A DNA stretch of 64,000 bases from Candidatus Pacearchaeota archaeon (lineage in GTDB: Archaea; Nanobdellota; Nanobdellia; Pacearchaeales; GW2011-AR1). Below are positions 20,120 through 61,869 of this stretch, piece by piece. Both the position numbers and the translations under genes were made by a program. How positions within the stretch are numbered: the stretch's first letter is position 1; each line of letters starts with the position of its first letter. The stretch lies in assembly GCA_018303885.1 (NCBI GenBank), contig JAGVXG010000009.1:27611-91610 (forward strand), given 5' to 3'. The notes under the pieces were generated by a model. The model did not search any database. It was not told the DNA's origin and was given only the letters and a program-made list of their open reading frames with translations.

Positions 20120-20680
20120 TTATTTACCGATTAAATTTAGTTCTAAATTTCTTTTGTCATCTAACATAATCTTTTCATCAGCAAAAGGTACTGTATGGTA
20201 ACCTAATTCGGTATTTCTATCTCCGGCGACTCTTTTGCCAAAATAGTTATTTTCAATAGAGTTAAATATACAAAATTGTGGCTCTGGGGCACATGGCTTT
20301 CCATTAGCATTTTCTTCCGTGTTTATAACAAATCCTAACCATATATTGTTGGGATTATTTAAGTAATCTTTTTGAAAAAGTCCTCGGAAAACCTTCAGGG
20401 CAAGGTTTCCATTGAAATAATTAAGATTTTCTTCTTCCTTAAGCTGTTGATAAACTAACTTTCCGCTAGCATCTTTAGTTACTGTATAAGAAAAAAGGGA
20501 TTTTGATGCTAAGGTATCTACTGATTTAAAATAATTAGATTTCAAATCTTTTTCGTTGTGAAAAAAGGCAGACGCCGCAAAAATCGAAACAGCAAGAACA
20601 ACAACTATAACAACAGTTGCAACTAGCCAGGTTATCGTATCACCCGTTTGCGCTTTTTTATTTTTAACAAGTTCCCGCAT
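20120..20680 (-). CDS. prepilin-like protein (186 aa)
   Basis: KKAQTG|DTITWLVATVVIVVVLAVSIFA N-terminus. 1-nt gap to the downstream gene. Confidence 0.6.
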   Translation of the reverse strand: MRELVKNKKAQTGDTITWLVATVVIVVVLAVSIFAASAFFHNEKDLKSNYFKSVDTLASKSLFSYTVTKDASGKLVYQQLKEEENLNYFNGNLALKVFRGLFQKDYLNNPNNIWLGFVINTEENANGKPCAPEPQFCIFNSIENNYFGKRVAGDRNTELGYHTVPFADEKIMLDDKRNLELNLIGK

Positions 20681-21182
20681 TTTTTTCTGTCTTTCTTACA
20701 ATAGAAAGTATATTTACTTGATATTGTGTATTTTTTCTATCAATAACATAAAGGCTTCTTTTTAGACAGAAAGGGAGGCTTTCTCCTTTATCTGCACAAA
20801 AAATTTTTAAATTGGAATTTCCTGCGGATATTTCAGGAATTTTTTTTCCATTGGGAGGATTAAAATCAAGAATTTCTATTTCAACATAATACTGTCCCTG
20901 TTCCTTCCAGCCGCAAGCATCTTCAACTTCAAAATTCAAGTTACATTGTTCAAGAAGGTTTTCATTAAAGCCTTCTATTAAAACTTCTTCTCGTAAATAT
21001 CCTGTTTGAGAAACACAATCTGCAACTCTGTTTGTCAAAGCATTTGCCTCCAATTCTCGTATGTCATATGGCTTTCCATAAAAAGAAAAAACCATGTAAA
21101 CAATTGCAGCAGCCACTATGAAAAGTATCACAAACCAATACACCGAAATTATCTTATCTCCGCCGGTTTTATTCATTGTCAT
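20664..21182 (-). CDS. prepilin-like protein (172 aa)
   Basis: MTMNKTGG|DKIISVYWFVILFIVAAAIVYMVF. Cys-containing ectodomain. Overlaps the next gene by 17 nt. Confidence 0.55.
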   Translation of the reverse strand: MTMNKTGGDKIISVYWFVILFIVAAAIVYMVFSFYGKPYDIRELEANALTNRVADCVSQTGYLREEVLIEGFNENLLEQCNLNFEVEDACGWKEQGQYYVEIEILDFNPPNGKKIPEISAGNSNLKIFCADKGESLPFCLKRSLYVIDRKNTQYQVNILSIVRKTEKNAGTC

Positions 21183-21183
21183 T

Positions 21184-21585
21184 TTATTCTATGAAAAAAT
21201 AAAATTCTTTTTTGTTTTCAGTAAGCTTGGGGGTTGCCTTAACTCCATTAAAAAAACTGTACGAATACCCTCCTTTTTCCCTAAGTTTAACTGTAACAAC
21301 ATTATTCTCAATAGTTACAATTTCACCAACAGGCCAGTTTTCTTTTTCTGCTTTGCTGATGGCATTTTCCATATTAAGATAAATCGTCATTCCTGGTTTC
21401 GCAGAATCTATAACAAGAGCTATTTGTTTTGCATATCTTTCCTCAAGAACAGCAGCGCTTCCCATTTTTAAAAATAAAAATAAAACCAAGGTTGATAAGA
21501 ACACAAGATTAAGAATAATAAAAATAAGGTTTTCCATCAAAATGGTCCCTTTTTTTCCTATATTTTTTGGCTTGGTTAGTTTCAT
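21184..21585 (-). CDS. prepilin-like protein (133 aa)
   Basis: NIGKKG|TILMENLIFIILNLVFLSTLVLFLFL. Confidence 0.55.
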   Translation of the reverse strand: MKLTKPKNIGKKGTILMENLIFIILNLVFLSTLVLFLFLKMGSAAVLEERYAKQIALVIDSAKPGMTIYLNMENAISKAEKENWPVGEIVTIENNVVTVKLREKGGYSYSFFNGVKATPKLTENKKEFYFFIE

Positions 21586-21586
21586 T

Positions 21587-22357
21587 TTATGCCTTTGTTA
21601 TGAACTCTCCTTCATCAAGACGAGAAGAAGTTTCAGAGGTTGGGATTATGTAAACCTTAAAAATAATATCTGAATCAATGGGATTATCATCTATTCCTGT
21701 AATAATAGAGTATTTTTCATTTGTCATAATCTTATCGTTATTAACATTTATTTTAAACTGGGAGTTTACTATCACAAAATTTACATCATTAACCCCATAC
21801 AAATAATTAAGATAACTCTGAGAACTTTGCTTTTGGGTTTTTCTTAGATAATCATAAAATTCGGCGTATGTTATTTCTGGGTATTTTTTCTGGATTTTTT
21901 CATCAAATTCAACCACAGAGCAAATAGCATATTTTATAGTTGAACTTCCAATTTCTCCGTAATTTACTTTTCCCTCGCCAAACATATACCAGCAATCAGC
22001 CATTTCTTTTGCAACGGCTTCTATAATTTCATTTTCACTGTCTTTATTGTTTAGATTTACTTCTACCTTAGATGCAGAAGCCAAGTTTTCACAATCATCT
22101 CCTCCAGAAATACAAAGGTAGTTTGTCCTGCAGTCTAGAGGCCCTCCTGATGTCGCTCTTAAAACAAGATTTCCTCTTAACACAACAGAATTATGGCAGA
22201 TTTCTTTGTTTGACTGCTCTCCGGGATTCAATCTAAAAATAAGGAAGAGTATAATGATAAAACTTACAATAAGCACTATGATTGTTACAAGTTGAGTCGT
22301 TGTTAATTCCCCTTTTTTATTTTCCATTATTTTTACCATGTTTCTACATAACTCCAA
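21587..22357 (-). CDS. prepilin-like protein (about 246-256 aa)
   Basis: MENKKG|ELTTTQLVTIIVLIVSFIIILFLIF. The probable true start is Met11 at 22327. Cys-containing ectodomain. Confidence 0.55.
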   Translation of the reverse strand: MELCRNMVKIMENKKGELTTTQLVTIIVLIVSFIIILFLIFRLNPGEQSNKEICHNSVVLRGNLVLRATSGGPLDCRTNYLCISGGDDCENLASASKVEVNLNNKDSENEIIEAVAKEMADCWYMFGEGKVNYGEIGSSTIKYAICSVVEFDEKIQKKYPEITYAEFYDYLRKTQKQSSQSYLNYLYGVNDVNFVIVNSQFKINVNNDKIMTNEKYSIITGIDDNPIDSDIIFKVYIIPTSETSSRLDEGEFITKA

Positions 22358-22454
22358 GTTTTTTTAAAAGCAAGTAAATTCCTGCTAAAGCTAACCCAAA
22401 AATCACTGCCCAAGTTAAATATTTTATTAATACTTCTATGTTTTCATTTTCCAT
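22347..22454 (-). CDS. possible 35-aa single-TM peptide
   Basis: My translation: MENENIEVLIKYLTWAVIFGLALAGIYLLLKKLGVM. It starts 9 nt after the upstream gene's stop. Too short for certainty. Confidence 0.3.
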
Positions 22455-22463
22455 GTTTATTTT

Positions 22464-22985
22464 TTATGCTTTTGAAATCATTTTATTTTGATAATCTATT
22501 TTAAGATTCAAAGGCGGTTCTATTGGTATTGGCTGTTGCTGAATGCCGTCTTTTCTGACAGTAAGTTGTTTTGAATTTTCCATGCAAATTCCATTATCAT
22601 CTGAATTTTCCAAAAACTTTTCTCTTACATTTCCCGTAAATGGTAAAGTTGACCATAACTGGCTTCCTAAACTAACATCTTTTACTATACAAACGCAACC
22701 ATCCCACCCAAGATTAGAGCAAGACCTTGGAAGTTTTCCTTCATTTTGATAAGGCCAAGATAAGATAACCCATCCTTTAGGATTGTAAATATCAACACTA
22801 GTTTTTTCAGCATTTATCTCCTGTTCAAGAAAATTCAGGGATTCTTTCGCTAGTTCAAGGTCTTTCGAGTCCTTTCCAGCTTTGTAAAGTGAAAAAAGAA
22901 GAAAAACCAAAAATCCTATAGCAATAACAGCAAGTATCACCTTCAACGTTTCTTCGGCAAGTAAAAAACCTCTTTTTGATTTCAT
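22464..22985 (-). CDS. prepilin-like protein with bacterial-style G|FxLxE N-terminus (173 aa)
   Basis: MKSKRG|FLLAEETLKVILAVIAIGFLVFLLF. Phe at +1 and Glu at +5, as in bacterial type IV pilins. Confidence 0.65.
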   Translation of the reverse strand: MKSKRGFLLAEETLKVILAVIAIGFLVFLLFSLYKAGKDSKDLELAKESLNFLEQEINAEKTSVDIYNPKGWVILSWPYQNEGKLPRSCSNLGWDGCVCIVKDVSLGSQLWSTLPFTGNVREKFLENSDDNGICMENSKQLTVRKDGIQQQPIPIEPPLNLKIDYQNKMISKA

Positions 22986-25754: not shown

Positions 25755-28100
25755 TTACATCTTCCTCTCTTTAATCTCATCATTCAACCACTTCAGCCAA
25801 AGAGGAAAGACTTTTTCGCTCAATGGCAAACCAGCTTCTTGGCGGACTTCATCTGAAATTCTATGAAATGCATGATTGGATTTCGAGCTAAATTCAGCCT
25901 CGAGAATCTTGTAATTGCCCAGTCTTTTTGCAGTATTCACGAGCTCTTCTTTTATCTTTGCTCTTAAAAGAATATTATCCCAGACAGCGTCCCAGTTTCC
26001 AGCCCAGCCCTTCACATTGGAAGCAACATCTTTGATTACTTCTGAGTCTCCGTTAATTAAGTCTTCTGTGGGCTCCAGCTCGTCAGTTTCAACATTATAC
26101 TTAAATAAATCCACGAAGCCTTTCTCTTCTAAAGGATCTTCTTTCCAATGCTTTCTTACCTCGGAAATTTGGACAACTCTTTTCCATGAATGCAGTCCAT
26201 CAGGACTTTTTATTGGATTAGCCACAATAATTATATCTGTTGCCTTGAAGCTCGTTGCAGGAACTTTGAGATCATTTACAACCCTGTCAAAAACTCCATA
26301 AGGCGAAGCGCCATGAATTGTTCCTGCAACAACATTTGCTAACGCGCCAACACGCATTGCTTCATAAAGCGCTTGCGCCTCAACGCTCCTGACTTCTCCA
26401 ATAATCAAACTCGAGTCTCCCAAACGCAAACTTGTTCTTATTCCGTCGTCGGCAGAAACTTCTGTAGATTTTAAAAGCGCACTGCGCACTTTCATTCTTA
26501 AAATATCATACTTTAATTTTCTTAAAGATTCTACGGGTAACTCGGCTGTGTCTTCTATCACTATAATCCTGTACTTAGGAATTATTTCAAGCATTAGACT
26601 TCCCAAAAGGCTCGTCTTTCCAGAGCTTCTTGTTCCCGCTACGAGCAATGTTCGAGAACCGTCAATCAAAAAACTTAAAACTCCTGCTGCAAGGGGATTT
26701 ATCATCTTATTCTCGACGAACAAAGGCAAAGTCCACGGTTCTTCTCTATGTCTTCTTATAGCATAAGATATTCCATCAGGGCTCAAAGGACGCTGAACAA
26801 TGGCGATTCTTGCCCTGACTCGGCCAAGCTTGGACGAGTCTCCCATTTCAAGTTGTGTATCGAGTATTGGATTTGCTTCGTCAAGAGGCCTTCCTGAAAT
26901 CAATCTGAATTTCGCTGCCCATGAATCAACATCTTCCTGGCTAGGAATTATATTTGTTAAACATTCATCATAAGTTTCATGGCGCACAAAAATAGGAATC
27001 ATTGAAACCGGCGCATTCAATGAAATGTCCTGAAGTCTCTTGTCCTGCAAGAGAACTTCTATTAGCCCAAAGCCAATAGTATGCCTTACGAGAATCGTGG
27101 CAAGCTTATTCAAGTCCTGATAAGAAATATTTACTCCTTTACTCTGCGCAAGATCCTGCAATAGGTCTTTTGAAATATTAAAAAAAACCTGTCTCGTCCT
27201 TTCTGTGTCTGTAAACTCTTCTGCTTTGGGCTGATGCTCTATCAGAACACTCCGCGCAAGATTTAGAAGCATGCCTTGATCTTCATCAAGAATATTTTCA
27301 GGAGGAACAATATGATAAATAAATTTTGGCTCGTCTTTCTTCTTTAGAATTGTCACAAGTGAAACATCGTATTCTTCGCTGGATATTTCATATTGGTCTG
27401 TAATTTCTGCATCCTCTGGCAAATCAGAAATAAGCCTCGTAAAGGTGAAATTAGGGATAACATCTGACCTAAATAGTTTTTCATACACTTCTCTGCTGCC
27501 TTTTCTATAATCTTTCATGTAAGGCGCTGCTTCTCTAAGGAGGCTAGTCTTTTCCATGAGCATCAAGGTCTTTTCAAGCAAGTTTATGTATCCAGACTGG
27601 TCTGTTTTATAAGAAACGGGCATTTTTTCAAGGGCTATTCTTCCTTGTATGATGATTTTTTTTAATTCAAAATGCGCAGCCAAAGGATCTCTTTTAAGAA
27701 AAGAAAGAAAAGAAAAAACTTCATTGTATCTTCCTGGGAAGAACCCATCATGCCCCATAGTTAATTTGTCTCTTGAGAGAATCCTTTCTTGTTGAACAAG
27801 ATAGACATAAAGCTGGGCGATCTCTAAAAGAAAATTTGTTTCCCTGAAATCATAGTTATAATTTTTTTGCTGAACAAAAATAATCCTGGAAACATTAGGA
27901 TTTTCAGTCAGGGCATCGATTGTTTTTTCCATAACATCTGGTGATTCAGAAAGACTCGGGACAAACGGAGCCCCAAGATAATTTATGTAAAGAATGTCTT
28001 CACCGCCTTCACGCTTAACTTCGTAAGAATACAACGGCTTCGTTCCTGGCGTTTCCATCGGCTCTTTTCCCATCAATTCTTTTTCTTCTGCTAACACCAT
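25755..28100 (-). CDS. type II/IV secretion-family ATPase (FlaI/PilB/VirB11-like) with long N-terminal extension (781 aa)
   Basis: Walker A LLVAGTRSSGKTSLLGSL. Asp-box/Walker B RIIVIEDTAELP and LIIGEVRSVEAQALYEAMRVG. His-box GTIHGASPYGVFDRV. About 430 aa precede the ATPase core. Confidence 0.85.
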   Translation of the reverse strand: MVLAEEKELMGKEPMETPGTKPLYSYEVKREGGEDILYINYLGAPFVPSLSESPDVMEKTIDALTENPNVSRIIFVQQKNYNYDFRETNFLLEIAQLYVYLVQQERILSRDKLTMGHDGFFPGRYNEVFSFLSFLKRDPLAAHFELKKIIIQGRIALEKMPVSYKTDQSGYINLLEKTLMLMEKTSLLREAAPYMKDYRKGSREVYEKLFRSDVIPNFTFTRLISDLPEDAEITDQYEISSEEYDVSLVTILKKKDEPKFIYHIVPPENILDEDQGMLLNLARSVLIEHQPKAEEFTDTERTRQVFFNISKDLLQDLAQSKGVNISYQDLNKLATILVRHTIGFGLIEVLLQDKRLQDISLNAPVSMIPIFVRHETYDECLTNIIPSQEDVDSWAAKFRLISGRPLDEANPILDTQLEMGDSSKLGRVRARIAIVQRPLSPDGISYAIRRHREEPWTLPLFVENKMINPLAAGVLSFLIDGSRTLLVAGTRSSGKTSLLGSLMLEIIPKYRIIVIEDTAELPVESLRKLKYDILRMKVRSALLKSTEVSADDGIRTSLRLGDSSLIIGEVRSVEAQALYEAMRVGALANVVAGTIHGASPYGVFDRVVNDLKVPATSFKATDIIIVANPIKSPDGLHSWKRVVQISEVRKHWKEDPLEEKGFVDLFKYNVETDELEPTEDLINGDSEVIKDVASNVKGWAGNWDAVWDNILLRAKIKEELVNTAKRLGNYKILEAEFSSKSNHAFHRISDEVRQEAGLPLSEKVFPLWLKWLNDEIKERKM

Positions 28101-28189
28101 ATAACTAAATAAAAAATCAGGTTAAAATATTTTGTGTTTGTGAGTTATTTTGAAATAGAAATCCACGTTTGAATAATTACGCTCTCTTA

Positions 28190-31063
28190 TTAGGTCAATC
28201 CTCTTTCAGAAATAGTTGAATCGCCACTATTTTCTCCTGTATCACTTCCCGTGTCTCCCAACTCAATAGGAACTTCTTTGCAGAAAGGCAAAAACTTAAA
28301 CCATTTACAAAAAACAGATGTCGTCTTTTTTACACAAGCGCCGTCAGAGCAGCCGTTTGGGCATACCACTCTTTCTGCAGCTTCAAAAGTATCTTTATAA
28401 CAATACAGTTCAACTAAATCTGATCCTTTTGTAACAACAAGGCCTGAGGAGTCAGCACAATAGTCGGTAGTAGAAAATTCATTTCCATAGATATCAAAAC
28501 CATTTAATTTTCCTTTAATATCATAATTCTGACCGCCATCAGAGTCAGTACATGTTGGTGTTTTAGGTGTTTTTATAATGCCACAAATAACTTTTATTGT
28601 TGCAGATGTATCTGATGCAGAAACAAGTTCAATAGTATAAAGTTGTTGGCTATAGGAGTTATATAATAATGACGGATTATCACTGGTTAAAGTAAATAAT
28701 CCTCCTTCAAGTTTGATATTTGCTAATAATTTTAAATTATTTTCATCGGCTTCGGCTAAAGAAATTTCCAAGCCCATAATGTTTTTTGTTTCCAATTCTT
28801 GAAGTTCTACATAATTAAGGTCTCCTTCTTTACAAGCTGGTTTTGGTGTTGAATCTGTTGCACATGCACCATCAGAGCAGCCGTTTGGGCATTCATACTC
28901 TTCTTTAGCAAGATTATTAGTTGTATCACAAGAAAATTCAAATAATGTATTAACTTTGTCTGAAGTTCCGGACCAGTCTTTATGACAAATATCCATTCCA
29001 ACATTAGTGCCAGATGAACTAATAACTGTCGTAATTCCCCCTATATTGTAATTTATTCCACCATCAGAATCCGTGCATTTTGGAGTTTCAATCTGACATA
29101 TACTCGAACAACCATCACCGTTTACAGTATTACCGTCGTCGCATGTTTCTCCACTATCAATAATTCCGTTTCCGCAAACAGGTCCGCCACCCCCAGGGCA
29201 ATCTTGAAAACAACTAGCTGGAGTTTCGCCAGCTTCACAGATACTATTTCCACAAATAGGTCCGATAGCCTGACTTACCCTTAACAATCCACTTTTAGCT
29301 GTTACGTCCTTGTTTTTTGTTGATTGTGCAATGAAATAATATTCTGGATCGCCGGCAAGTCCATCATTTTGCCATTCTGCTACCCAGCTTCCTGTTGCAG
29401 TATTTCCTGAAAATACAACATTGGCTGGATTTACATTTACAGCGTCGTCAGAGCTCGTAGTATCGTCCTCCCAAACCCCAAAAGAAACACTTTGTCCATT
29501 ACAATTATTTCCCTGGACACTTAAGTTTACTGTTTGCCCTTCTGTTGTCTGCGTCGTACTCCACGATGCAGATGTGAAAACACAAGTTGGTTTAGTTATA
29601 TCCTTTATGCAAGCGCCATCAGAACAACCATTTGAACAATAAAAAGCCTCCTGATTCTGAGTATATTCTGTTTGGCTGTTGCAGACTCCCTCAATTAAGA
29701 AATATTTATCAGTACAGTAATCATCAAACTCTTCAACAGTACCATAAGGATTATTCGTGTATGTTAAAGTTCCTTTCACATCGTAATTCAATCCGTCATC
29801 ACTGTCAGTACATGTTGGTTCTGGTTTATCTGGTGTTAGTGGCCTTTGTGTAGTACCCCCAATTGTTTGGCAAGGTGTGTTTGGTTTTGCAAGAAGTGCG
29901 TCAAAATACTCCCAATGTTCTGTAAGAATCCAATAATCATTGTAGTCTATAAGACCTGCCATTATGAATCTACCTCCTTGATCCCAACATACTTTTACAT
30001 CAAGATTTGGATTAGATTTTTTTATCCATTCTGCATCTTGTTGCGCCCACGCATCATTTGTATGGCTTTTTAGTCTAGGTTGTGTAAATGAAAGTGTATT
30101 TGTTATTGGAGCAGTATTTACATCGGGAAAATAATCAAATGGCTCGCTAACTTGTGATGCCATTGCAAAAACCCCAAAATCAGGAATTGTTACTAAAACA
30201 TAAGTTCCTCCAGTTAATGTTTCAGGTGATCTTGTGCCCCAAACATATATTGCGTGATTATCTATTCTATACTGTGAAGTTGCAGTGCTTTTAACTTGAA
30301 CTTCTGTTGTACATTTGCCATCTAAACACCTATTATCTTTGAAAGTGATATAATTAGGAGTTACTGAGAGTTCTCTCCCAGCAGTAGGAAGAAGATCTGC
30401 TGAACTTGTTGTCAAGGAAGCTTTGTTATTCAGAGCCTCAAGTACTTCTGGCGGCCAATTTATTTTTGGAATGTTGGAAGTCCCAGCAACTAAGGATGCC
30501 GGCGCCACTGAAGAAATTTGGCCAGAGGGGGAGATGTATCTAACTATTGCTACTTTGTTTGAAGAGCTCGTTGCATCAGTAGTTTTTGGTTGGATATTTG
30601 TAGCTGGTGTATTATTTACTGGTTTTGGACAATCAACTAAACAAGACGTAGAGCTTTCACCGCTGTTGCAAATTCCATCGCCACAATATGGTCCTTGAAC
30701 ACTAACTGTTTGACATTGTGAAGAACAATAATTACAACTGCTTCCATAATTAGCACCACAAACAATACCATTTCGGCTTCCAGAATCACATTGTTCTCCT
30801 GATTCAACAATTCCATTACCGCAAACTGCCGCAGTTGGTTTAGCAACACATCTTGAAGTATCAAACCTACAGCTAGTGCAACTTAAAGTTCCGCTTGCAA
30901 ATCCAAAATCAACACAAGAAGTTATATCTCCTAATGGATCTTCTCCATCGCATAATTCTCCGGCTTCAAGAATTCCGTTGCCGCAAATTCCCGCAGTTAC
31001 TTTTCCCGTAAATCCTTGCGGTCCGAATAAATCCGAAAACCAGCTAGCGGAAATAAACGTCAA
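28190..31063 (-). CDS. large secreted modular cysteine-rich protein (957 aa), candidate adhesin
   Basis: Five CGNG(I/L)xExGExCD-type repeats. Three modules of about 70 aa each, CTDSDGG.NY...YC...C.NGCSDGAC. No TM anchor. The only in-frame start as assembled is TTG at 31063, so the start is uncertain. Confidence 0.7.
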   Translation of the reverse strand: MTFISASWFSDLFGPQGFTGKVTAGICGNGILEAGELCDGEDPLGDITSCVDFGFASGTLSCTSCRFDTSRCVAKPTAAVCGNGIVESGEQCDSGSRNGIVCGANYGSSCNYCSSQCQTVSVQGPYCGDGICNSGESSTSCLVDCPKPVNNTPATNIQPKTTDATSSSNKVAIVRYISPSGQISSVAPASLVAGTSNIPKINWPPEVLEALNNKASLTTSSADLLPTAGRELSVTPNYITFKDNRCLDGKCTTEVQVKSTATSQYRIDNHAIYVWGTRSPETLTGGTYVLVTIPDFGVFAMASQVSEPFDYFPDVNTAPITNTLSFTQPRLKSHTNDAWAQQDAEWIKKSNPNLDVKVCWDQGGRFIMAGLIDYNDYWILTEHWEYFDALLAKPNTPCQTIGGTTQRPLTPDKPEPTCTDSDDGLNYDVKGTLTYTNNPYGTVEEFDDYCTDKYFLIEGVCNSQTEYTQNQEAFYCSNGCSDGACIKDITKPTCVFTSASWSTTQTTEGQTVNLSVQGNNCNGQSVSFGVWEDDTTSSDDAVNVNPANVVFSGNTATGSWVAEWQNDGLAGDPEYYFIAQSTKNKDVTAKSGLLRVSQAIGPICGNSICEAGETPASCFQDCPGGGGPVCGNGIIDSGETCDDGNTVNGDGCSSICQIETPKCTDSDGGINYNIGGITTVISSSGTNVGMDICHKDWSGTSDKVNTLFEFSCDTTNNLAKEEYECPNGCSDGACATDSTPKPACKEGDLNYVELQELETKNIMGLEISLAEADENNLKLLANIKLEGGLFTLTSDNPSLLYNSYSQQLYTIELVSASDTSATIKVICGIIKTPKTPTCTDSDGGQNYDIKGKLNGFDIYGNEFSTTDYCADSSGLVVTKGSDLVELYCYKDTFEAAERVVCPNGCSDGACVKKTTSVFCKWFKFLPFCKEVPIELGDTGSDTGENSGDSTISERGLT

Positions 31064-31086
31064 AGATAATAAAATAATATTCCTTA

Positions 31087-31107
31087 AATAATAATAATAA
31101 TAATAAT
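31087..31107. repeat. (AAT)7 trinucleotide microsatellite between the TATA-like box and the start of the Cys-rich protein gene
   Basis: aataataataataataataat read directly. An identical (AAT)7 lies at 48728-48748, upstream of another Cys-rich secreted protein gene. Confidence 0.9.
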
Positions 31108-31289
31108 AGCATTTATATATTTTTATGTAAGATTAAAGGCTTTTAAATTTTAATTCAATCACAACAAATTTAACTTAAATCTGGGAATCAATTAACATGT
31201 TTTGCTGAGAGCTCCATTCTTTGTCAGAATGTGATTTAATATAATTCACCCAAAATTTAACAAAGTTGATTCTCTCTTCTTTGTTATCT

Positions 31290-48004: not shown

Positions 48005-48727
48005 TTAATTTATACTACCAAATAGCTTGCCAAGCCATTCTTTAACAGAATCAATAAACTGAAGTGAGCCTTCTTCACAGCTTCCATCTTCTTTACATGT
48101 GCATGGTTTTTTCTCTGTCAATAAAAGACCGCCGGAACAGTAATATTCTGTTAGACCCCCATTCAGGCAGGTATCAGTCCTCTTAGTTTCATGAATCCCC
48201 TCCTTATCTTCTGAAAGTTCTGTCGTAATGCCCTCTTTATAATAATTTCTGCCCCAATTTCCACTTGCTAATTCTAAGGCAGTATCCCCAATAGTGTAAG
48301 CATCAGTATCTGTACAAGAGTATAACGCTCCCTCTGAAACTTCAAGGGTAACTTTATTACTGCCTTTTTGAAGCGGTTGGATTGTAAAATGAAAACCAGA
48401 AGTGAAGGTTCTTATTCCTTCTTCCTTTGAATAAAGATTGGCAACAGGAATGCTATCTCCATAATAATCTATATTACCTTCTTTAGTAAAAAGGCTTATT
48501 GTAGCCAAATTATCTGTCGCAGATACTCCCCCTAACACATAATACTGAACATTCTCCTGATAACTAAAATATTTAACCCTATATCCTTCATTAAGATTAA
48601 TTACGTCTCCAGGAAAAAGATTATATTCTCCAACACCCCTATATGTTTTAGCTTGAGATAAAGAAATTAATAGAATAAATAAAAAAGAAAAAAGAAATAT
48701 AAAAACCGGTCTCTTCTGTATTCTCAT
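48005..48727 (-). CDS. secreted Cys-containing protein related to the CTDSDGG module (about 240 aa)
   Basis: Best start is the ATG at 48727, giving the signal peptide MRIQKRPVFIFLFSFLFILLISLSQA. The C-terminal CTDTDAYTIGD...YYCSGG...CTCKEDGSCEEG resembles modules of the 957-aa protein. The ORF-track extension to 48823 reads through (ATT)7 as poly-Ile and into the polD 3' end. Confidence 0.6.
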   Translation of the reverse strand: MRIQKRPVFIFLFSFLFILLISLSQAKTYRGVGEYNLFPGDVINLNEGYRVKYFSYQENVQYYVLGGVSATDNLATISLFTKEGNIDYYGDSIPVANLYSKEEGIRTFTSGFHFTIQPLQKGSNKVTLEVSEGALYSCTDTDAYTIGDTALELASGNWGRNYYKEGITTELSEDKEGIHETKRTDTCLNGGLTEYYCSGGLLLTEKKPCTCKEDGSCEEGSLQFIDSVKEWLGKLFGSIN

Positions 48728-48748
48728 AATAATAATAATAATAATAAT
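48728..48748. repeat. (AAT)7 trinucleotide microsatellite abutting the ATG of the secreted protein gene
   Basis: aataataataataataataat read directly. A TATA-like TTTAAA follows at 48754-48759 (48753-48760 with one flanking base each side). Confidence 0.9.
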
Positions 48749-48776
48749 AAGCTTTAAATTTCTTTTGGCTGAAGTT

Positions 48777-51700
48777 TTAAAACCACTTCCCCAAGTCTTT
48801 CTGGGTTTCGGCTTCTTTTCCAAATACAGAGTCTATGTGACGCTTTGTAAGTTCAAGGCTTTGTATAATATACGTTGAAAGATTGTATTTCTTTGCGAGG
48901 GCTAAAGCAGGTTCTAGATATTTTTTTATTCCGCCTTCATTTGTTGTGAAAATAATCTTTCCATTGCATTTTATACATGTTCCAGACAACGGCGGGCGCC
49001 TCATAATTTCTCCACAGGCAACGCAGCGAAATTCCTGCATAGAAAACTTCCTCAGATTTCCCCTCATGTCTTTGATAAAATGTCTTTCAATCACTAATCT
49101 TGCTGTATCAGAAGTATTTGCAGCGCGGATTTTTTCGACGAGCTCCATTTGCCGCTGGACTTTTTCCTGCATGGTGGCAAGAAGTTTATAATTCGAACAA
49201 ACAACTCCTTCATTTATGTTTGAAGTTTCATGCGTGTGCCCCATATTTATGAATGGGTCTTTTCCTTCTTTCAAAGCCGTTCTCACATCATAAACTTTAA
49301 TTTCAGAAGAATGCTTTCTCTGTTCAGCTGCCCTATACAACTCAAGAGGATATTCGTTAACAAGCTCAAAATCAAGTATCTGATCGTCCACCTCGCCAGC
49401 ATCGATCTTCGCGTTTAAAACTAATGGAGAATCTTGGGTTCCTCCCCGATGACTAGGCAAAAACTTTCTTGAAAAATTTAAGAGAACATCGCCAAGAAGC
49501 ATTATTGCCGCCTCGTCGCCGTCACATCTAGTATTTATTATCTGTTCTCCCCAAAGAACATTTCTGTCTTTTTTGTCTTTCCATTCAATTTCAACACAAT
49601 AAGAATTTCCCTTGTCTTTAATCATCTCGACATTTTTTACACGGTCTTCAACATAATCGCTTTGTGCAGCCATTAAAATTTGTTTTCCGTTATATTTTAA
49701 GTATCTGTTTTCGCATCCTTTCAAAATCTCGAGTTTATTTCTTTTAGAACTATTTACAACATTTAAATACTTGGAAAGAAGATAAGAATCGTAAACACCT
49801 AAAACTAAATGATTCAATATGTGTTTTTTTGGTTCTTTTCCTAACGCTTTATACCTTTCCAAAACAGTTTTTCCTGGCAATCTCTCCTTTGTTTTAAGGT
49901 ATCTTGAAATAACTTTAAATTTACTCATTAATAAAGAAGTGTCGTCCAATAAACTTCTTGAAACAGAATAAAAAACAATATTTCTATCTTTTACTACACT
50001 GCCATCACCTTCAAAAAATGCAGAGAGATATTCTCCTGCAAGACTTTTATCTAATCCAAATATGAAACTAGGAACTCTTTTTTCATAAGCGCCCTTTCCA
50101 CAGCCTAAACAATCAAATAAGTGGTAAACAAGCTTATTGCATATAGTTATCTTGCTGTTTTCTTCGCCTAAACTTGGGCTGCTTCCGAAAACTTTTTTAA
50201 TTAAATAAATAATATGGTCTTGCATCTCACTATTGCATATTCTAAAAGAAACCTGAGAAACCCATTTATTTGTTCTTGAGTGTCCCTCTGCAGCATAATA
50301 CCCAAGCAATCTCGCAAATTCTGGGCTTATTGTTAAATTTGACGGTAGTGTATGCTTAGAAAACTTGTGCCTTAATTTTAAGTTATCTAAATCTGTTTGC
50401 AGCGTAATGTTAAATTTGTCAAGGCCTGTAACATCCCCCCCATTTACGACAAATATCTCCTTTTGTTTTTCTATTGAAATTTTTTCTTTAAATAAAGTAA
50501 TCAAATTGATATTTTTTACCCTTGTTTCAAAATCGAAGTTTTCTAAAATCGGGATTTTATCATCAACTTTTGCTTCTTTGGCGTTTTTAAAATTAAACTC
50601 GCCGTTCTCAATATGCATAAATTTGTGTGTTGGGGTCACAACATACTCTCGATTAGTGGCAGTTGTTATTTTAACCCATTCTTTTGTTTCTGGCCCCTTG
50701 ACAAAATACCTTATTCTTTTTTTCTTTAGTTCATGAGTGTCTGGGTCAATTCCAACAGCAAATATATTTTCTTTGTTTTCAACAGATATAGTTCCAAAAG
50801 AATCTATTTTTTTTGTTCTGGCTCCTTTACTGATTAATTTATCAACATAATCTCCAATATTATCATAAAATATCTCTTTTGTATCTTCATTATAATAAAA
50901 AAACTTGGTTGTCGGATGCACGCAATCCCTTCTAATTGCAGCATGCATGTACGGACTCGCGAAAAGCCCGAGCGTGTTTGAAAATCCAACAATCCTGCAG
51001 ACAACCCCTGCACAATTATGCGGTGCAATGCACACCCCAAGTTTTCCTACAAGATCTTCTCTTTTTTTCACGTTGTACATTGGCCTCAATCCATAAAAAC
51101 TCTCTAAAAGCTCGTCGGTAAAATGGCATATTCTCATAAAAATCTCATCTGCTCTTGATTCTGGTGACTCAGATGGACACGGCAAAAGTATGTCATGCGG
51201 TTTCAATTCAAGAATTTGGTTTTCATCTCTTAGTTCCTTACCGAAAATATCTATATCATAACCAATTTCCTTTAATTTTTCAACACTTACAAATGCTTCT
51301 TTTGGCTTGAATGAAACTAAAGGCATTTCTGTCGCATCAAATCTTATTGTCCCGTCTTTATTCACCTGTAAATTAAATAATGCTCTAAGAATTCCTTTAG
51401 AAAGATGTTCTACAACATGCCCGTGTTTGTCGCATGGATTTAGCAAAGTAGTTTTGCATTCATAACAATAAAACATTTTTATGCACTGTTTTTCACACGT
51501 TTCGCAAATATTTTGTATTGTTTCTTTCTTGCAATTTTCACAGAAATAAACAGGAAAATCAGAGGTAACGCTTCCTGCTTCACATGCTGCCTGAACACTT
51601 CTCAGTCTGCCGCCTTCTTTTCCAACAGGAAATAAAACATTCGGGCTTCCCGTAAGCTTTCTTAGCTTTGCTTTTTCAGGGCGCCCCATTCTTGCTCCAA

Positions 51701-53507
51701 TAAAATCTCCTGCCTTGTCTTTAATTTCAAATTCAGAAACAGAGTTTATAATACTTAAAACATCTTCATCTTTATCAGATTTATATCTCTCGGCGTTTAT
51801 AATTTCTTTTAAATTGTTTTCATTTTCTAAAATATCCTGGCTTATTCCCAAATTCGCAAACAATGCCTTGCTTGTCTCATGGTTAATTACAACATTTTCT
51901 ATAACAACATCATGTTCAACCCCTAAAAGCTCCAGCGCCCTTTTTCCAACATTGAATTTTTCTTCTTCTTTTTTATTGTAAGGGAGAATTACTTTTTTAT
52001 CGACTCTTGAATTTTTCAGCCAGTAAAGAAGTCCTTCTAAATGCTCGCTTGAAATTTGCGTCCAGTAAAAAATATGCCTCGGATTCAAAGGAACTTTATT
52101 CTCGTTGCTTATTTTAGCAGATTCATCAAAACTCAAGGTAAAGGCGTTTATCGTATTCTCAAGACTAGGGTTTTTTTCTCTAAGCTCCAGCGCCCAGATT
52201 TCCTCTACATACCCCGGCTTAATCAAATTAGAATTCCTATTTGCAAGGTCACTGAAAGGAAAAAGTATGTCACCAAGATAAATAATTTCTTCTGTGTCTT
52301 TGTAAAATCTTTTTGCTTCTTCCAGTGTTTTTACCTTTTTCACACTTCCATTAAAAAGTTTTATTATCGGCCCATCTATAACATCACAAGTTGTCACAAT
52401 ACATCCTTTAGTTGGCTTCTCTATCTTGAGTTGGGTTCCTATCGCAATAAAAGAATCTGTAATCCCCATTGTTGCTGGATGCACCGACGCTCCGCTAAAG
52501 CCAGAGCTTCTACCTCTTCCGTATCTAAATCTAAATGCTCCTGACTCTGAAGGATGCCCGAAAACAGGACGCCCGGCAACAAGGTCATTAATGTATGTTG
52601 GAGATTCTTCTGTTTTGCCGGTGTCTCTTTTTTCATGCAGTTTAACATATTCATTAAGAAAGTCCCAATCACTTAACTTAAATCCTTTTTCCCTTAAAGA
52701 ATAAACATACCTGGAAATTTTTTTTGCTTTTTGTGCTAGTCCTTCGCCAATAACAAGGCAAAGACCCCCTCTTATGTAATTTGTTTCTATCCTTTCCTGG
52801 TTTTTATAATTAGAAACTTCCATTTTTTCAGTGGCTTCCCCGTTGACCTGTAAAGGAATGTTTCTTGCAAGGAAATCTGTTTCATTGTCTGTAGGCATAT
52901 ACTGTAAATTCGTAATTCTTTCATGATAATCGTGGAGTTCGACTACAGTTCTTTTTACTTCTATTTCTCGAGGATCGTATTTTGCATAGCCGAAAATTTC
53001 CCTGAGATGATCTATTATCACTAATGAAAATGCTGCTCCTGTACCGCCCGCACTTCTTATTGGCCCTGAAAAATACGGTGACAGATACTCTTTTCCGTCG
53101 CTGGTTTTCATGATTTTTATTGAAGTCATTCCTTCTATAGGACTCGAGACAACACCAAGAGTAATGTATGCTATTCCTGTTCTTGAGCCCGCTTCAATTG
53201 CTTCTAAAAGACCGGAAAATCCACAGAATTTTTGCTTCGCGATTTCTTCTGCAATCTGAAGGCAAATAGCCGGGTTTAGCTTGCCCCATTTTCTCTCAAG
53301 TTCCAAAATTCTCTCGACAATTCCAGAGCCATCCATTTGCGGATATACCGAAGAAATAAGCCCTACGACTTTTTCTGCAAGGCTTCTGGCAAGAGGAATC
53401 TCTACTTTGTTCACGGGATCAAATCCTTTTTTCCTGGCTTCTTCTGCAATTTCATAAATCTTTTTCGTTTCTTCTTCTATTGATTTTAGGTATTGTTGTG
53501 TGTTCAT
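48777..53507 (-). CDS. polC: DNA polymerase II (PolD) large subunit DP2, interrupted by an intein
   Basis: Typical DP2 N-terminus (YLKSIEEETKKIYEIAEEARKKGFDP). Zn clusters. The catalytic region ...SPYMHAAIRRD is followed by the intein, then (TR)CDGDEAAIMLLGDVLLNFSR. Confidence 0.9.
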   Translation of the reverse strand: MNTQQYLKSIEEETKKIYEIAEEARKKGFDPVNKVEIPLARSLAEKVVGLISSVYPQMDGSGIVERILELERKWGKLNPAICLQIAEEIAKQKFCGFSGLLEAIEAGSRTGIAYITLGVVSSPIEGMTSIKIMKTSDGKEYLSPYFSGPIRSAGGTGAAFSLVIIDHLREIFGYAKYDPREIEVKRTVVELHDYHERITNLQYMPTDNETDFLARNIPLQVNGEATEKMEVSNYKNQERIETNYIRGGLCLVIGEGLAQKAKKISRYVYSLREKGFKLSDWDFLNEYVKLHEKRDTGKTEESPTYINDLVAGRPVFGHPSESGAFRFRYGRGRSSGFSGASVHPATMGITDSFIAIGTQLKIEKPTKGCIVTTCDVIDGPIIKLFNGSVKKVKTLEEAKRFYKDTEEIIYLGDILFPFSDLANRNSNLIKPGYVEEIWALELREKNPSLENTINAFTLSFDESAKISNENKVPLNPRHIFYWTQISSEHLEGLLYWLKNSRVDKKVILPYNKKEEEKFNVGKRALELLGVEHDVVIENVVINHETSKALFANLGISQDILENENNLKEIINAERYKSDKDEDVLSIINSVSEFEIKDKAGDFIGARMGRPEKAKLRKLTGSPNVLFPVGKEGGRLRSVQAACEAGSVTSDFPVYFCENCKKETIQNICETCEKQCIKMFYCYECKTTLLNPCDKHGHVVEHLSKGILRALFNLQVNKDGTIRFDATEMPLVSFKPKEAFVSVEKLKEIGYDIDIFGKELRDENQILELKPHDILLPCPSESPESRADEIFMRICHFTDELLESFYGLRPMYNVKKREDLVGKLGVCIAPHNCAGVVCRIVGFSNTLGLFASPYMHAAIRRDCVHPTTKFFYYNEDTKEIFYDNIGDYVDKLISKGARTKKIDSFGTISVENKENIFAVGIDPDTHELKKKRIRYFVKGPETKEWVKITTATNREYVVTPTHKFMHIENGEFNFKNAKEAKVDDKIPILENFDFETRVKNINLITLFKEKISIEKQKEIFVVNGGDVTGLDKFNITLQTDLDNLKLRHKFSKHTLPSNLTISPEFARLLGYYAAEGHSRTNKWVSQVSFRICNSEMQDHIIYLIKKVFGSSPSLGEENSKITICNKLVYHLFDCLGCGKGAYEKRVPSFIFGLDKSLAGEYLSAFFEGDGSVVKDRNIVFYSVSRSLLDDTSLLMSKFKVISRYLKTKERLPGKTVLERYKALGKEPKKHILNHLVLGVYDSYLLSKYLNVVNSSKRNKLEILKGCENRYLKYNGKQILMAAQSDYVEDRVKNVEMIKDKGNSYCVEIEWKDKKDRNVLWGEQIINTRCDGDEAAIMLLGDVLLNFSRKFLPSHRGGTQDSPLVLNAKIDAGEVDDQILDFELVNEYPLELYRAAEQRKHSSEIKVYDVRTALKEGKDPFINMGHTHETSNINEGVVCSNYKLLATMQEKVQRQMELVEKIRAANTSDTARLVIERHFIKDMRGNLRKFSMQEFRCVACGEIMRRPPLSGTCIKCNGKIIFTTNEGGIKKYLEPALALAKKYNLSTYIIQSLELTKRHIDSVFGKEAETQKDLGKWF
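49533..50924 (-). mobile_element. PolD DP2 intein (about 464 aa) with LAGLIDADG homing endonuclease domain
   Basis: Starts CVHPTTKFF (Cys codon at 50924-50922). LAGLIDADG motifs LLGYYAAEGHS and LSAFFEGDGSV. The C-terminal junction reads GEQIIN|TRCDGDE. The exact 3' boundary is ambiguous, at 49533 or 49527. Confidence 0.8.
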
Positions 53508-60117: not shown

Positions 60118-60957
<840 letters not shown>

Positions 60958-61197: not shown

Positions 61198-61869
61198 TCA
61201 CTTTTCCTCTGAATTTTTGTCCCTTCTAACTCTCACTTTCTGTCTTTTGAGGAGTTTTTCCTTCATATTTTCAGGTATAAACACCCTCTTTTTCCCATTT
61301 TTCTCTACTGCCTCCTCTATCAAGCCCTCACTCTTCTGTTTTATCCTATTTAAATGTCCCCTGATGGTTGATCTCTCCTTTCCAACAATGGCCGCAAGAT
61401 CATCATAACTTAGTTTCATATCCGAATTTAAAAGAATCCAAATAATAGCTCTTTCTGTTACTGAAAATTTATCTAAATTTGGTGTTTGAACACCTGTTTG
61501 AACACCTGTTTGAACACCTGTTTGAACAGCATAAACACCTGTTTGTTTATCAAACACCTGTTTGGTTGTTCTAAACGGCCTGTTTGGTTTTAGATCACTC
61601 ATTATGGAAATGACATTTTTTATTCCTTCAATTTCAGAATTTATCGTCGACAAAACGTCTTTTATCTCATTTATCTCTTTTCCTTGTAATTTTTTTTCAG
61701 AATCAAGGTGTTTGATCCATGCACTCATAGATGTTATATCTTTTTTAACAGATTCAAAACCCCTTTTGGTGTCTTCTTTAAGGCTATCAACACCCCTTTT
61801 ACCAAATAACCATTCAAACATATTAAGTATTATATATTCTAATTTAAAAATCTTTTCCTTTTTCGTCAA
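61198..61869 (-). CDS. coiled-coil / repeat / C-terminal wHTH protein (223 aa), same architecture as 60118-60957
   Basis: N-terminal coiled coil, QTGVQTGVQTGVQT repeat, and a C-terminal VTERAIIWILLNSD...LSYDDLAAIVGKERSTIRGHLNRIKQK wHTH. The start may be the internal Met (MFEWLFG) at 61821. Confidence 0.55.
   Translation of the reverse strand: MTKKEKIFKLEYIILNMFEWLFGKRGVDSLKEDTKRGFESVKKDITSMSAWIKHLDSEKKLQGKEINEIKDVLSTINSEIEGIKNVISIMSDLKPNRPFRTTKQVFDKQTGVYAVQTGVQTGVQTGVQTPNLDKFSVTERAIIWILLNSDMKLSYDDLAAIVGKERSTIRGHLNRIKQKSEGLIEEAVEKNGKKRVFIPENMKEKLLKRQKVRVRRDKNSEEK
61482..61588. repeat. seven copies of CACCTGTTTG(A/G/T) (four tandem at a 12-nt period, three dispersed) inside the coding region
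   Basis: ggtgtttgaaca / cacctgtttgaa x3 (61491-61526), then cacctgtttgtt (61536), cacctgtttggt (61555) and cctgtttggt (61579). Two more copies lie upstream of the gene at 61985-62006. Confidence 0.85.

Follow-up and report, generated by a model that had tools for sequence, protein, structure and literature searches.

Phase variation through simple sequence repeats (SSRs) in promoters is known from several bacteria, including the poly-G/C/A tracts in the promoters of Neisseria porA and opc and of Mycoplasma hyorhinis vlp. In Mycoplasma gallisepticum, a (GAA)n tract lies upstream of each vlhA (pMGA) gene, and the gene is expressed only when the tract has 12 units. Next to such well-studied contingency tracts, a repeat of seven trinucleotide units looks short. 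In yeast, promoters contain unstable tandem repeats, rich in AT, that tune expression between strains, and the operators of archaeal repressors usually lie just downstream of the TATA box. In the hifA/hifB region of Haemophilus influenzae, the -35 box is separated from the -10 box by a (TA)n repeat (van Ham et al. 1993, as cited in PMC11868660). In archaeal promoters an A-rich BRE accompanies a TATA box of 8 bp whose centre is about 27 nt before the start; there are also a pyrimidine-purine initiator and, near -10, a proximal element, A/T-rich, that modulates strength (PMC5316973). A 2025 review describes SSR-based phase variation in archaea as uncharted and treats it as future work (PMC11868660), and in the literature searched we found no description of an archaeal promoter with SSR-based switching or with a spacer made of a pure microsatellite.

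The 64,000 nt of archaeal DNA analysed here (henceforth referred to as the window; GC content 34.5%) contain two candidates for such a spacer. Near-identical contigs are present in many aquifer metagenome assemblies. The archaeal origin presumed in the initial annotation is borne out by the large subunit (DP2) of DNA polymerase D (PolD), which carries an intein (48777–53507, minus strand), and by the protein cluster of one of the two genes discussed below (gene 2), which is named Candidatus Pacearchaeota at NCBI. The window also encodes an archaeal-type TyrRS, a FlaI/T2SSE-like ATPase (25755–28100) and a cluster of pilin-like genes (20120–22985). Rfam and tRNA scans of the window detected only two tRNAs, both distant from the repeats.

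A survey of perfect SSRs of at least 12 nt found only two trinucleotide arrays in the 64 kb, both confirmed by direct reading and by Tandem Repeats Finder as perfect tracts of period three. On the gene strand, site 1 (31087–31108, minus strand) is T(ATT)7, a pure tract of 22 nt or 7.3 units. Site 2 (48726–48750, minus strand) is TT(ATT)7AT, pure over 25 nt or 8.3 units, and its final AT supplies the A and the T of the gene 2 ATG. Exactly seven AAT units are found at each site, where the initial annotation had placed them; the two microsatellites, described there as identical, are so in the AAT register, but the pure tracts differ in length (22 vs 25 nt). A search for (AAT)5 with at most one mismatch gave eight overlapping matches, all inside the two sites, against an expectation of 0.08 from 100 dinucleotide-preserving shuffles, none of which reached eight; the tracts are therefore real and not an effect of composition. 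On the gene strand each begins 2–3 nt past a TATA box, with the same motif and the same register after a GC dinucleotide. Both are thus perfect and of a length capable of slipping, even though seven to eight units is at the short end for trinucleotides.

To place these tracts in the promoter grammar of the genome, we took 70 nt of upstream sequence from each of 54 ORFs that could be placed with confidence and plotted the positions of the hexamer TT[AT]A[AT]A; an EM motif search for the TATA box had drifted to poly-A and was discarded in favour of this histogram. In about 22 of the 54 genes the first T of the hexamer fell within a sharp peak 27–30 nt before the ATG (mode -28/-29), and the hexamer was almost absent from -35 to -45. 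Because the peak coincides with the published distance from TATA box to start, first genes of this Pacearchaeota archaeon appear to be transcribed as leaderless mRNAs by default, and their promoters in the window follow a clear grammar.

Site 2 follows this grammar. Its core promoter (48754–48767, minus strand) reads AAAAGAAATTTAAA on the gene strand, an A-rich BRE-like stretch followed by TTTAAA (48754–48759), the TATA-like box that had been pointed out at this position and strand and that is plausible as a TATA box, as is its counterpart at site 1. The first T of the box is at -31 from the ATG of gene 2, the long edge of the natural range of -27 to -31, and the spacer consists of GC plus TT(ATT)7. 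The ATG itself (48727–48725) overlaps the tract. The stop codon of PolD DP2 (48777–48779, minus strand) is 49 nt upstream of this ATG, and the short gap between the two genes, which share a strand, houses the entire promoter. Gene 2 (48005–48727, minus strand) encodes a secreted protein of 240 aa with the classical signal peptide MRIQKRPVFIFLFSFLFILLISLSQA and one degenerate Cys module at its C-terminus. The leaderless or near-leaderless mRNA proposed earlier for this gene agrees with the genome-wide geometry, the start of transcription being predicted from the TATA spacing. Two other roles for the repeat were considered and rejected. At site 2, coding of poly-Ile would need an upstream start in frame, and the sole one is a TTG inside PolD; an intrinsic terminator of the upstream gene does not fit a tract with no run of three or more T.

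Site 1 is built differently downstream of the box. Its core promoter (31111–31126, minus strand) reads ATAAAAATATATAAAT on the gene strand, again an A-rich BRE-like stretch and then a TATA box, TATATAAA; the corresponding TATA-like sequence ATATATAAAT lies at 31111–31120 on the minus (gene) strand, in agreement with the initial annotation. The product of the gene that follows (gene 1; 28190–31079, minus strand) is secreted and Cys-rich and is built of several modules, with DUF4215/CGNG repeats and three copies of CTDSDGG...CPNGCSDGAC. The window has a gene 1 truncated at its 5' end, whose ORF opens only at a TTG (31063) within the apparent core of the signal peptide, leaving no usable start codon. 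Nine other assemblies of the same population, fetched via a neighbouring gene, explain the truncation: all nine carry 52 nt that are absent from the window at 31079|31080 (GTTGATTAACTAAA-ATG-AAAAAGGGGTTGGTTGTTAGTTTATTTTTATTTGC). The deletion, whose junction shows no microhomology, takes away the ATG, the opening 12 signal-peptide codons and the leader apart from the remnant TAAGGAA (31080–31086, minus strand), which ends at the junction. The intact allele encodes 975 aa starting with MKKGLVVSLFLFAIILLSLTFISASW, as compared with 957 aa for the form in the window. In intact alleles a leader of 21 nt separates tract and ATG, and the box TATATAAA is 54 nt before the ATG, a distance that does not fit the leaderless geometry. 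The claim that the tract lies between TATA-like box and start codon thus stands for intact alleles of gene 1, with the qualifications that 21 nt of leader intervene and that the window lacks the ATG. From the TATA spacing, transcription is predicted to start in the last repeat unit or in the TAAGG that follows, giving a leader of about 21–24 nt. As alternatives, TTTAAG at the 3' end of the tract was rejected as TATA box (it is only 23 nt from the ATG, outside -27 to -31), and so was coding of poly-Tyr or poly-Leu by the tract, for which there is no in-frame start.

The 52-nt deletion has a counterpart in PolD DP2, which in the window lacks 132 nt at about 51422 (44 codons, in frame, AGSKDHYYRPIDAAYFFEKAREKLGLSQSEVPVLVKGVRGMSSE, including VKGVRGMSS) that are present in six related contigs (L001–L006). 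The window-specific forms of the two proteins (957 aa for gene 1, 1576 aa for PolD) had no exact match in the public protein collection, where a PolD of 1620 aa is on record, and it was by these failed matches that the deletions were recognised as private. Both are confined to the source assembly of the window and are probably artefacts, although the 52-nt deletion could also be a null allele. One related scaffold has an N-gap at another locus. Since one of these deletions destroys the start of gene 1, annotation from the window alone would be misleading.

Both downstream genes encode Cys-rich proteins bearing signal peptides, as the initial annotation had it. Only about 4 of 56 genes in the window belong to this class, and two tracts that both precede such genes have a probability of about 0.005 in a test made post hoc. 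The coincidence of motif, register and gene class at both tracts is suggestive of something shared. The module that the two proteins were said to have in common received weak support, with a BLASTP E-value of 0.08 and, when a profile of 11 module copies was aligned with the C-terminus of gene 2 by hhalign, a probability of 50% and an E-value of 1.7e-4. In three lineages (the window at 25755–31079, L146 and L150) a Cys-rich protein of the gene 1 family is encoded directly upstream of the FlaI/T2SSE-like ATPase; this synteny, with the pilin-like cluster nearby, suggests a link between the family and an apparatus for secretion or a pilus. Just downstream of PolD there is a slot that is occupied by gene 2 in the window (48005–48776) and by a gene 1-family protein of 927 aa (P0005) in L143 (1453–4284). 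Judging from this arrangement, the slot is a putative locus for variable surface proteins, preceded by a promoter whose position is conserved.

To see how the spacers have changed over time, we compared the promoters of homologous genes. For gene 2, one homologue cluster other than its own was found (61% identity), whose promoter, GTATTTAAAG, contains the same box ATTTAAAG followed by 21 non-repetitive nt and the ATG. Its TATA box is at -28, the spacing that six repeat units would give at site 2, and there is no repeat. The gene 1 family has its first ~130 residues in common. One member (P0006, L146–L149) occupies the same position upstream of the FlaI-like ATPase in a co-occurring species whose flanking genes are about 74–83% identical in DNA to those of the window population; here the spacer is a pure T(ATT)6. 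A more distant gene in the same position (P0014, L150/151) has the interrupted TT-ATT-CTT-ATT-ATT-GTT; another at a different position (P0004, L141/142) has T-ATT-ATT, with two units; and P0005 (L143–L145), directly downstream of PolD in what is gene 2's slot in the window, has only a proto-repeat, TTTATTAAG. The comparison of repeat counts across related genomes called for by the initial annotation thus shows differences between species (7, 6, about 5 with interruptions, and 2) together with invariance within populations (see below).

The pair formed by the window and L146 is close enough to compare position by position. The BRE/TATA block AAAATATATAAATGC is identical at 15 of 15 positions in this positional orthologue, and the tract is identical at 20 of 20 apart from one missing 3-nt unit, whereas the leader matches at 16 of 20 and the sequence further upstream at only 5 of 14. 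At 74% identity, the chance that 19 positions would remain unchanged is about 0.003. The purity of the tract in two diverged lineages therefore argues for either sequence-specific selection or slippage frequent enough to purge interruptions, and either of these would make the tract more than a passive spacer. More remote relatives do without it. A scan of GTDB genomes with a profile of the N-terminal family left the species of the window unrecovered and returned mostly bacterial DUF4215 proteins, largely of Myxococcota type, along with about 10 DPANN hits. Some nine DPANN genes at a greater distance share the signal peptide MKKG...SFVSA(S/G/N)WFSD, and none of them is preceded by an ATT microsatellite; most have TTTATA(T/A)A, ~21–22 non-repeat nt and the ATG, i.e. 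plain leaderless promoters, which indicates that the architecture does not need the repeat.

Within populations the unit number does not vary. Site 2 has seven units in 10 of 10 assemblies, with a sequence exactly as in the window; these assemblies are 99.8–100% identical to the window over 5.4–6.6 kb, and one differs by 14 SNPs. Site 1 has seven units in 9 of 9 assemblies, and the sister population (L146–L149) has a pure T(ATT)6, six units followed by a leader of 22 nt, in 4 of 4. The counts were compared on consensus sequences, some perhaps re-assemblies of the same reads, in which minority variants are invisible. Consensus comparison can nonetheless detect copy-number variation in this population when it is present, because two other repeats vary among its assemblies. 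The 12-nt repeat TGTTTGAACACC (61483–61528) has four copies in the window and five further loci and three copies in four others (L152, L156, L158 and L160), and (ACAG)n at 60418–60445 has seven units in ten sequences and four in one (L157). Metagenome scans added little: the pattern GAAATTTAAAGCTT N{3,33} ATGAGAATACAGAAGAGACC gave no match, although the sequence exists in JGI samples, and the degenerate TAAAKSYT(ATT)5 matched at least 120 contigs, but none of the 80 fetched loci was similar to the window. The rapid slippage, or phase variation, that had been put forward for these genes is thus not reflected in any length difference among the 10, 9 and 4 consensus sequences. Polymorphism among close relatives was the one defining feature of phase-variable loci that we tested, and in these consensus sequences the ATT tracts do not show it.

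The two variable repeats are of some interest in themselves. (ACAG)7 lies inside an ORF (60118–60957, plus strand) and is translated as TDRQTDRQTD, in a linker between a coiled-coil N-terminus and a winged-helix-like C-terminus. The (ACAG)4 of L157 represents an in-frame loss of 12 nt; gain or loss of just one or two units would put the ORF out of frame, and this makes (ACAG)n a better candidate for a contingency locus than the ATT tracts. The 12-nt repeat falls in an ORF on the minus strand (61198–61821), where it encodes VQTG repeats in a protein whose architecture is similar to that of its neighbour.

The reading that we favour, and hold to be probably though by no means certainly correct, is that the tracts are core-promoter spacers born by slippage, in which the number of units changes between species and is fixed within populations. 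Each tract would fill the whole interval from the TATA box to the expected start of RNA polymerase (22–25 nt), and at site 2 the predicted start falls on the ATG or 2–3 nt before it, so that the mRNA would be leaderless or nearly so. An (ATT)n sequence could serve both needs of such a spacer, being AT-rich, and hence easily melted, and of the right length; it would also offer a T-A (pyrimidine-purine) step for initiation every 3 nt. As to its origin, TTATTA proto-repeats, the likely remnants of which can be seen in homologous promoters, may have expanded by slippage in one clade, and the unit number would then have shifted on the timescale that separates species, through the 2, ~5, 6 and 7 units seen today. 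The repetitiveness itself would be a by-product of slippage. Observed in this light, the case illustrates the birth of a microsatellite inside a core promoter and its persistence across species.

If the spacer reading is right, slippage should have graded effects that differ between the two genes. At any unit number the ~22 nt that follow the TATA box would remain ATT repeats, with a T-A step every 3 nt, and a slip would therefore spare promoter recognition and lengthen or shorten the RNA only by AUU at its 5' end. For site 2 the prediction is that six units give a truly leaderless mRNA, seven a leader of 3 nt and eight one of 6 nt, while with five or fewer the AUG would be lost. At site 1 a slip would change leader length only, and loss of the start codon does not apply there, as the 21-nt leader after the tract keeps the ATG clear. 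Nor would a single slip make a clean on/off switch of site 2, where one unit less or more puts the TATA box at -28 or -34, to be compared with the natural range of -27 to -31. A single slip is accordingly predicted to be mild, and an on/off effect would need a contraction of at least two units at site 2. The fixed unit number at this site probably reflects selection that keeps the distance from TATA box to ATG within its working range. A role in tuning leader length is possible.

A different reading takes the tracts as contingency loci, in which slippage at high frequency shifts the 5' end of the mRNA and thereby tunes a surface protein, or switches it on and off, in a heritable and reversible manner. 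Much about the setting is appropriate: the tracts occupy the sole interval of the promoter where the number of units shifts the start relative to the ATG, both genes have a secreted Cys-rich product, and the difference between species (7 vs 6) with perfect purity suggests ongoing slippage. The differing secreted-protein genes found downstream of PolD in related populations could likewise be a sign of diversifying pressure, and SSR-based phase variation in archaea is still uncharted (PMC11868660). We nevertheless consider this explanation unlikely, given that no variant was seen at site 2, at site 1 or in the sister population, in assemblies that came from many samples, included strains of up to 0.2% SNP divergence and did capture copy-number variants of two other repeats. 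The leader protects the ATG at site 1, a change of one unit at site 2 stays at or near the natural range (the repeat-free orthologue has the six-unit spacing), and seven trinucleotide units make a short tract by the standards of bacterial contingency loci.

A specifically archaeal form of this idea would have the tract act as a tuning knob, each slip adding or removing one AUU and so grading the translation of a leaderless surface-protein mRNA, with the AUG deleted below six units at site 2. Purity in two diverged species and the one-unit difference between them would then be its evolutionary trace. We give it little credence, slightly less than we give contingency in general, but its consequences would be considerable. 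Archaea would thereby have their first described simple-sequence switch inside a promoter, operating in a DPANN episymbiont in which contact with the host is mediated by surface proteins. More broadly, if the repeats do modulate expression in any way, simple-sequence contingency would extend to archaea in a form specific to TATA-measured starts and leaderless translation.

It may also be asked whether the tracts do anything at all. A neutral microsatellite, without a role even as a length-constrained spacer, might simply be tolerated in AT-rich intergenic DNA. With a genome of 34% GC and compact intergenic regions that are mostly promoters, an SSR made only of A and T is likely to land in a promoter, and most homologous promoters have no tract. 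On the other hand, the window has two tracts of 22 nt or more where 0.08 loose matches were expected, purity is perfect in two diverged lineages, and both tracts sit exactly in the interval between TATA box and start, which is length-constrained in the archaeal promoters that have been studied (PMC5316973). Neutrality thus seems to us about as improbable as the tuning knob.

Somewhat more doubtful still is a shared cis-regulatory element, that is, (ATT)n as the target of a DNA-bound repressor, or of a chromatin protein, that co-regulates both genes by blocking the recruitment of polymerase. Both genes carry the same motif on the same strand and equally placed with respect to the TATA box, and between species the tract is kept more strictly than the adjacent leader. 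Yet the tract is missing from the orthologue of gene 2 and from nine other promoters of the family, is degenerate in L150 and is reduced to only two units in L141; its unit number varies between homologues, no candidate regulator was found, and a low-complexity AT repeat is a poor specific operator. Finally, an upstream poly-leucine leader peptide that controls translation of gene 1, opened at site 1 by the ATG (31112–31110) in TATAAATGC, is very improbable: the short ORF through the tract is open in both lineages (MLLLLLLLFKEVD in the window population (L011), MLLLLLLLKEIG in L146), ends 5 nt before the main ATG and has a TTTAAAAG box 27 nt upstream of its own ATG in the window, but this box is not conserved in L146 while the one overlapping the short-ORF ATG is 100% conserved, site 2 has no such ATG, and, stops being frequent in AT-rich sequence, a short open frame is expected by chance, so that the ORF probably lies upstream of the transcription start as a chance frame.

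Considered as core-promoter spacers, the two tracts can be set against the systems described at the outset. In function their nearest analogues are the bacterial promoter-spacer repeats of H. influenzae hif and the GAA repeats of M. gallisepticum. They resemble the SSRs of bacterial promoter spacers (hif etc.) in being short perfect repeats in the core promoter of surface genes, at an interval whose length matters. Unlike these, which separate two recognised elements whose spacing sets promoter strength, they lie between a TATA box and a start defined by distance, so that a slip would alter the 5' end of the mRNA and leave promoter recognition as it is; and while the bacterial repeats are polymorphic between and within strains, the archaeal tracts are invariant in 19 assemblies. 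With vlhA they share a trinucleotide repeat upstream of surface-protein genes, each gene having its own tract, but the GAA repeat is longer, is located upstream of the promoter and varies within cultures, whereas here there are two genes, the tract is in the interval from TATA box to start, and no variation was seen. The yeast promoter repeats are similar in that they combine a TATA/TBP-based machinery with AT-rich repeats in promoters whose copy number differs between lineages. In architecture they conform to the canonical archaeal BRE/TATA promoter (PMC5316973), with an A-rich stretch and a TATA box at the expected distance, A/T-rich sequence from about -22 to -1, a T-A step at the predicted start and, as in many archaea, a leaderless ATG. 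What sets these two promoters apart from it is that the whole spacer is one pure microsatellite.
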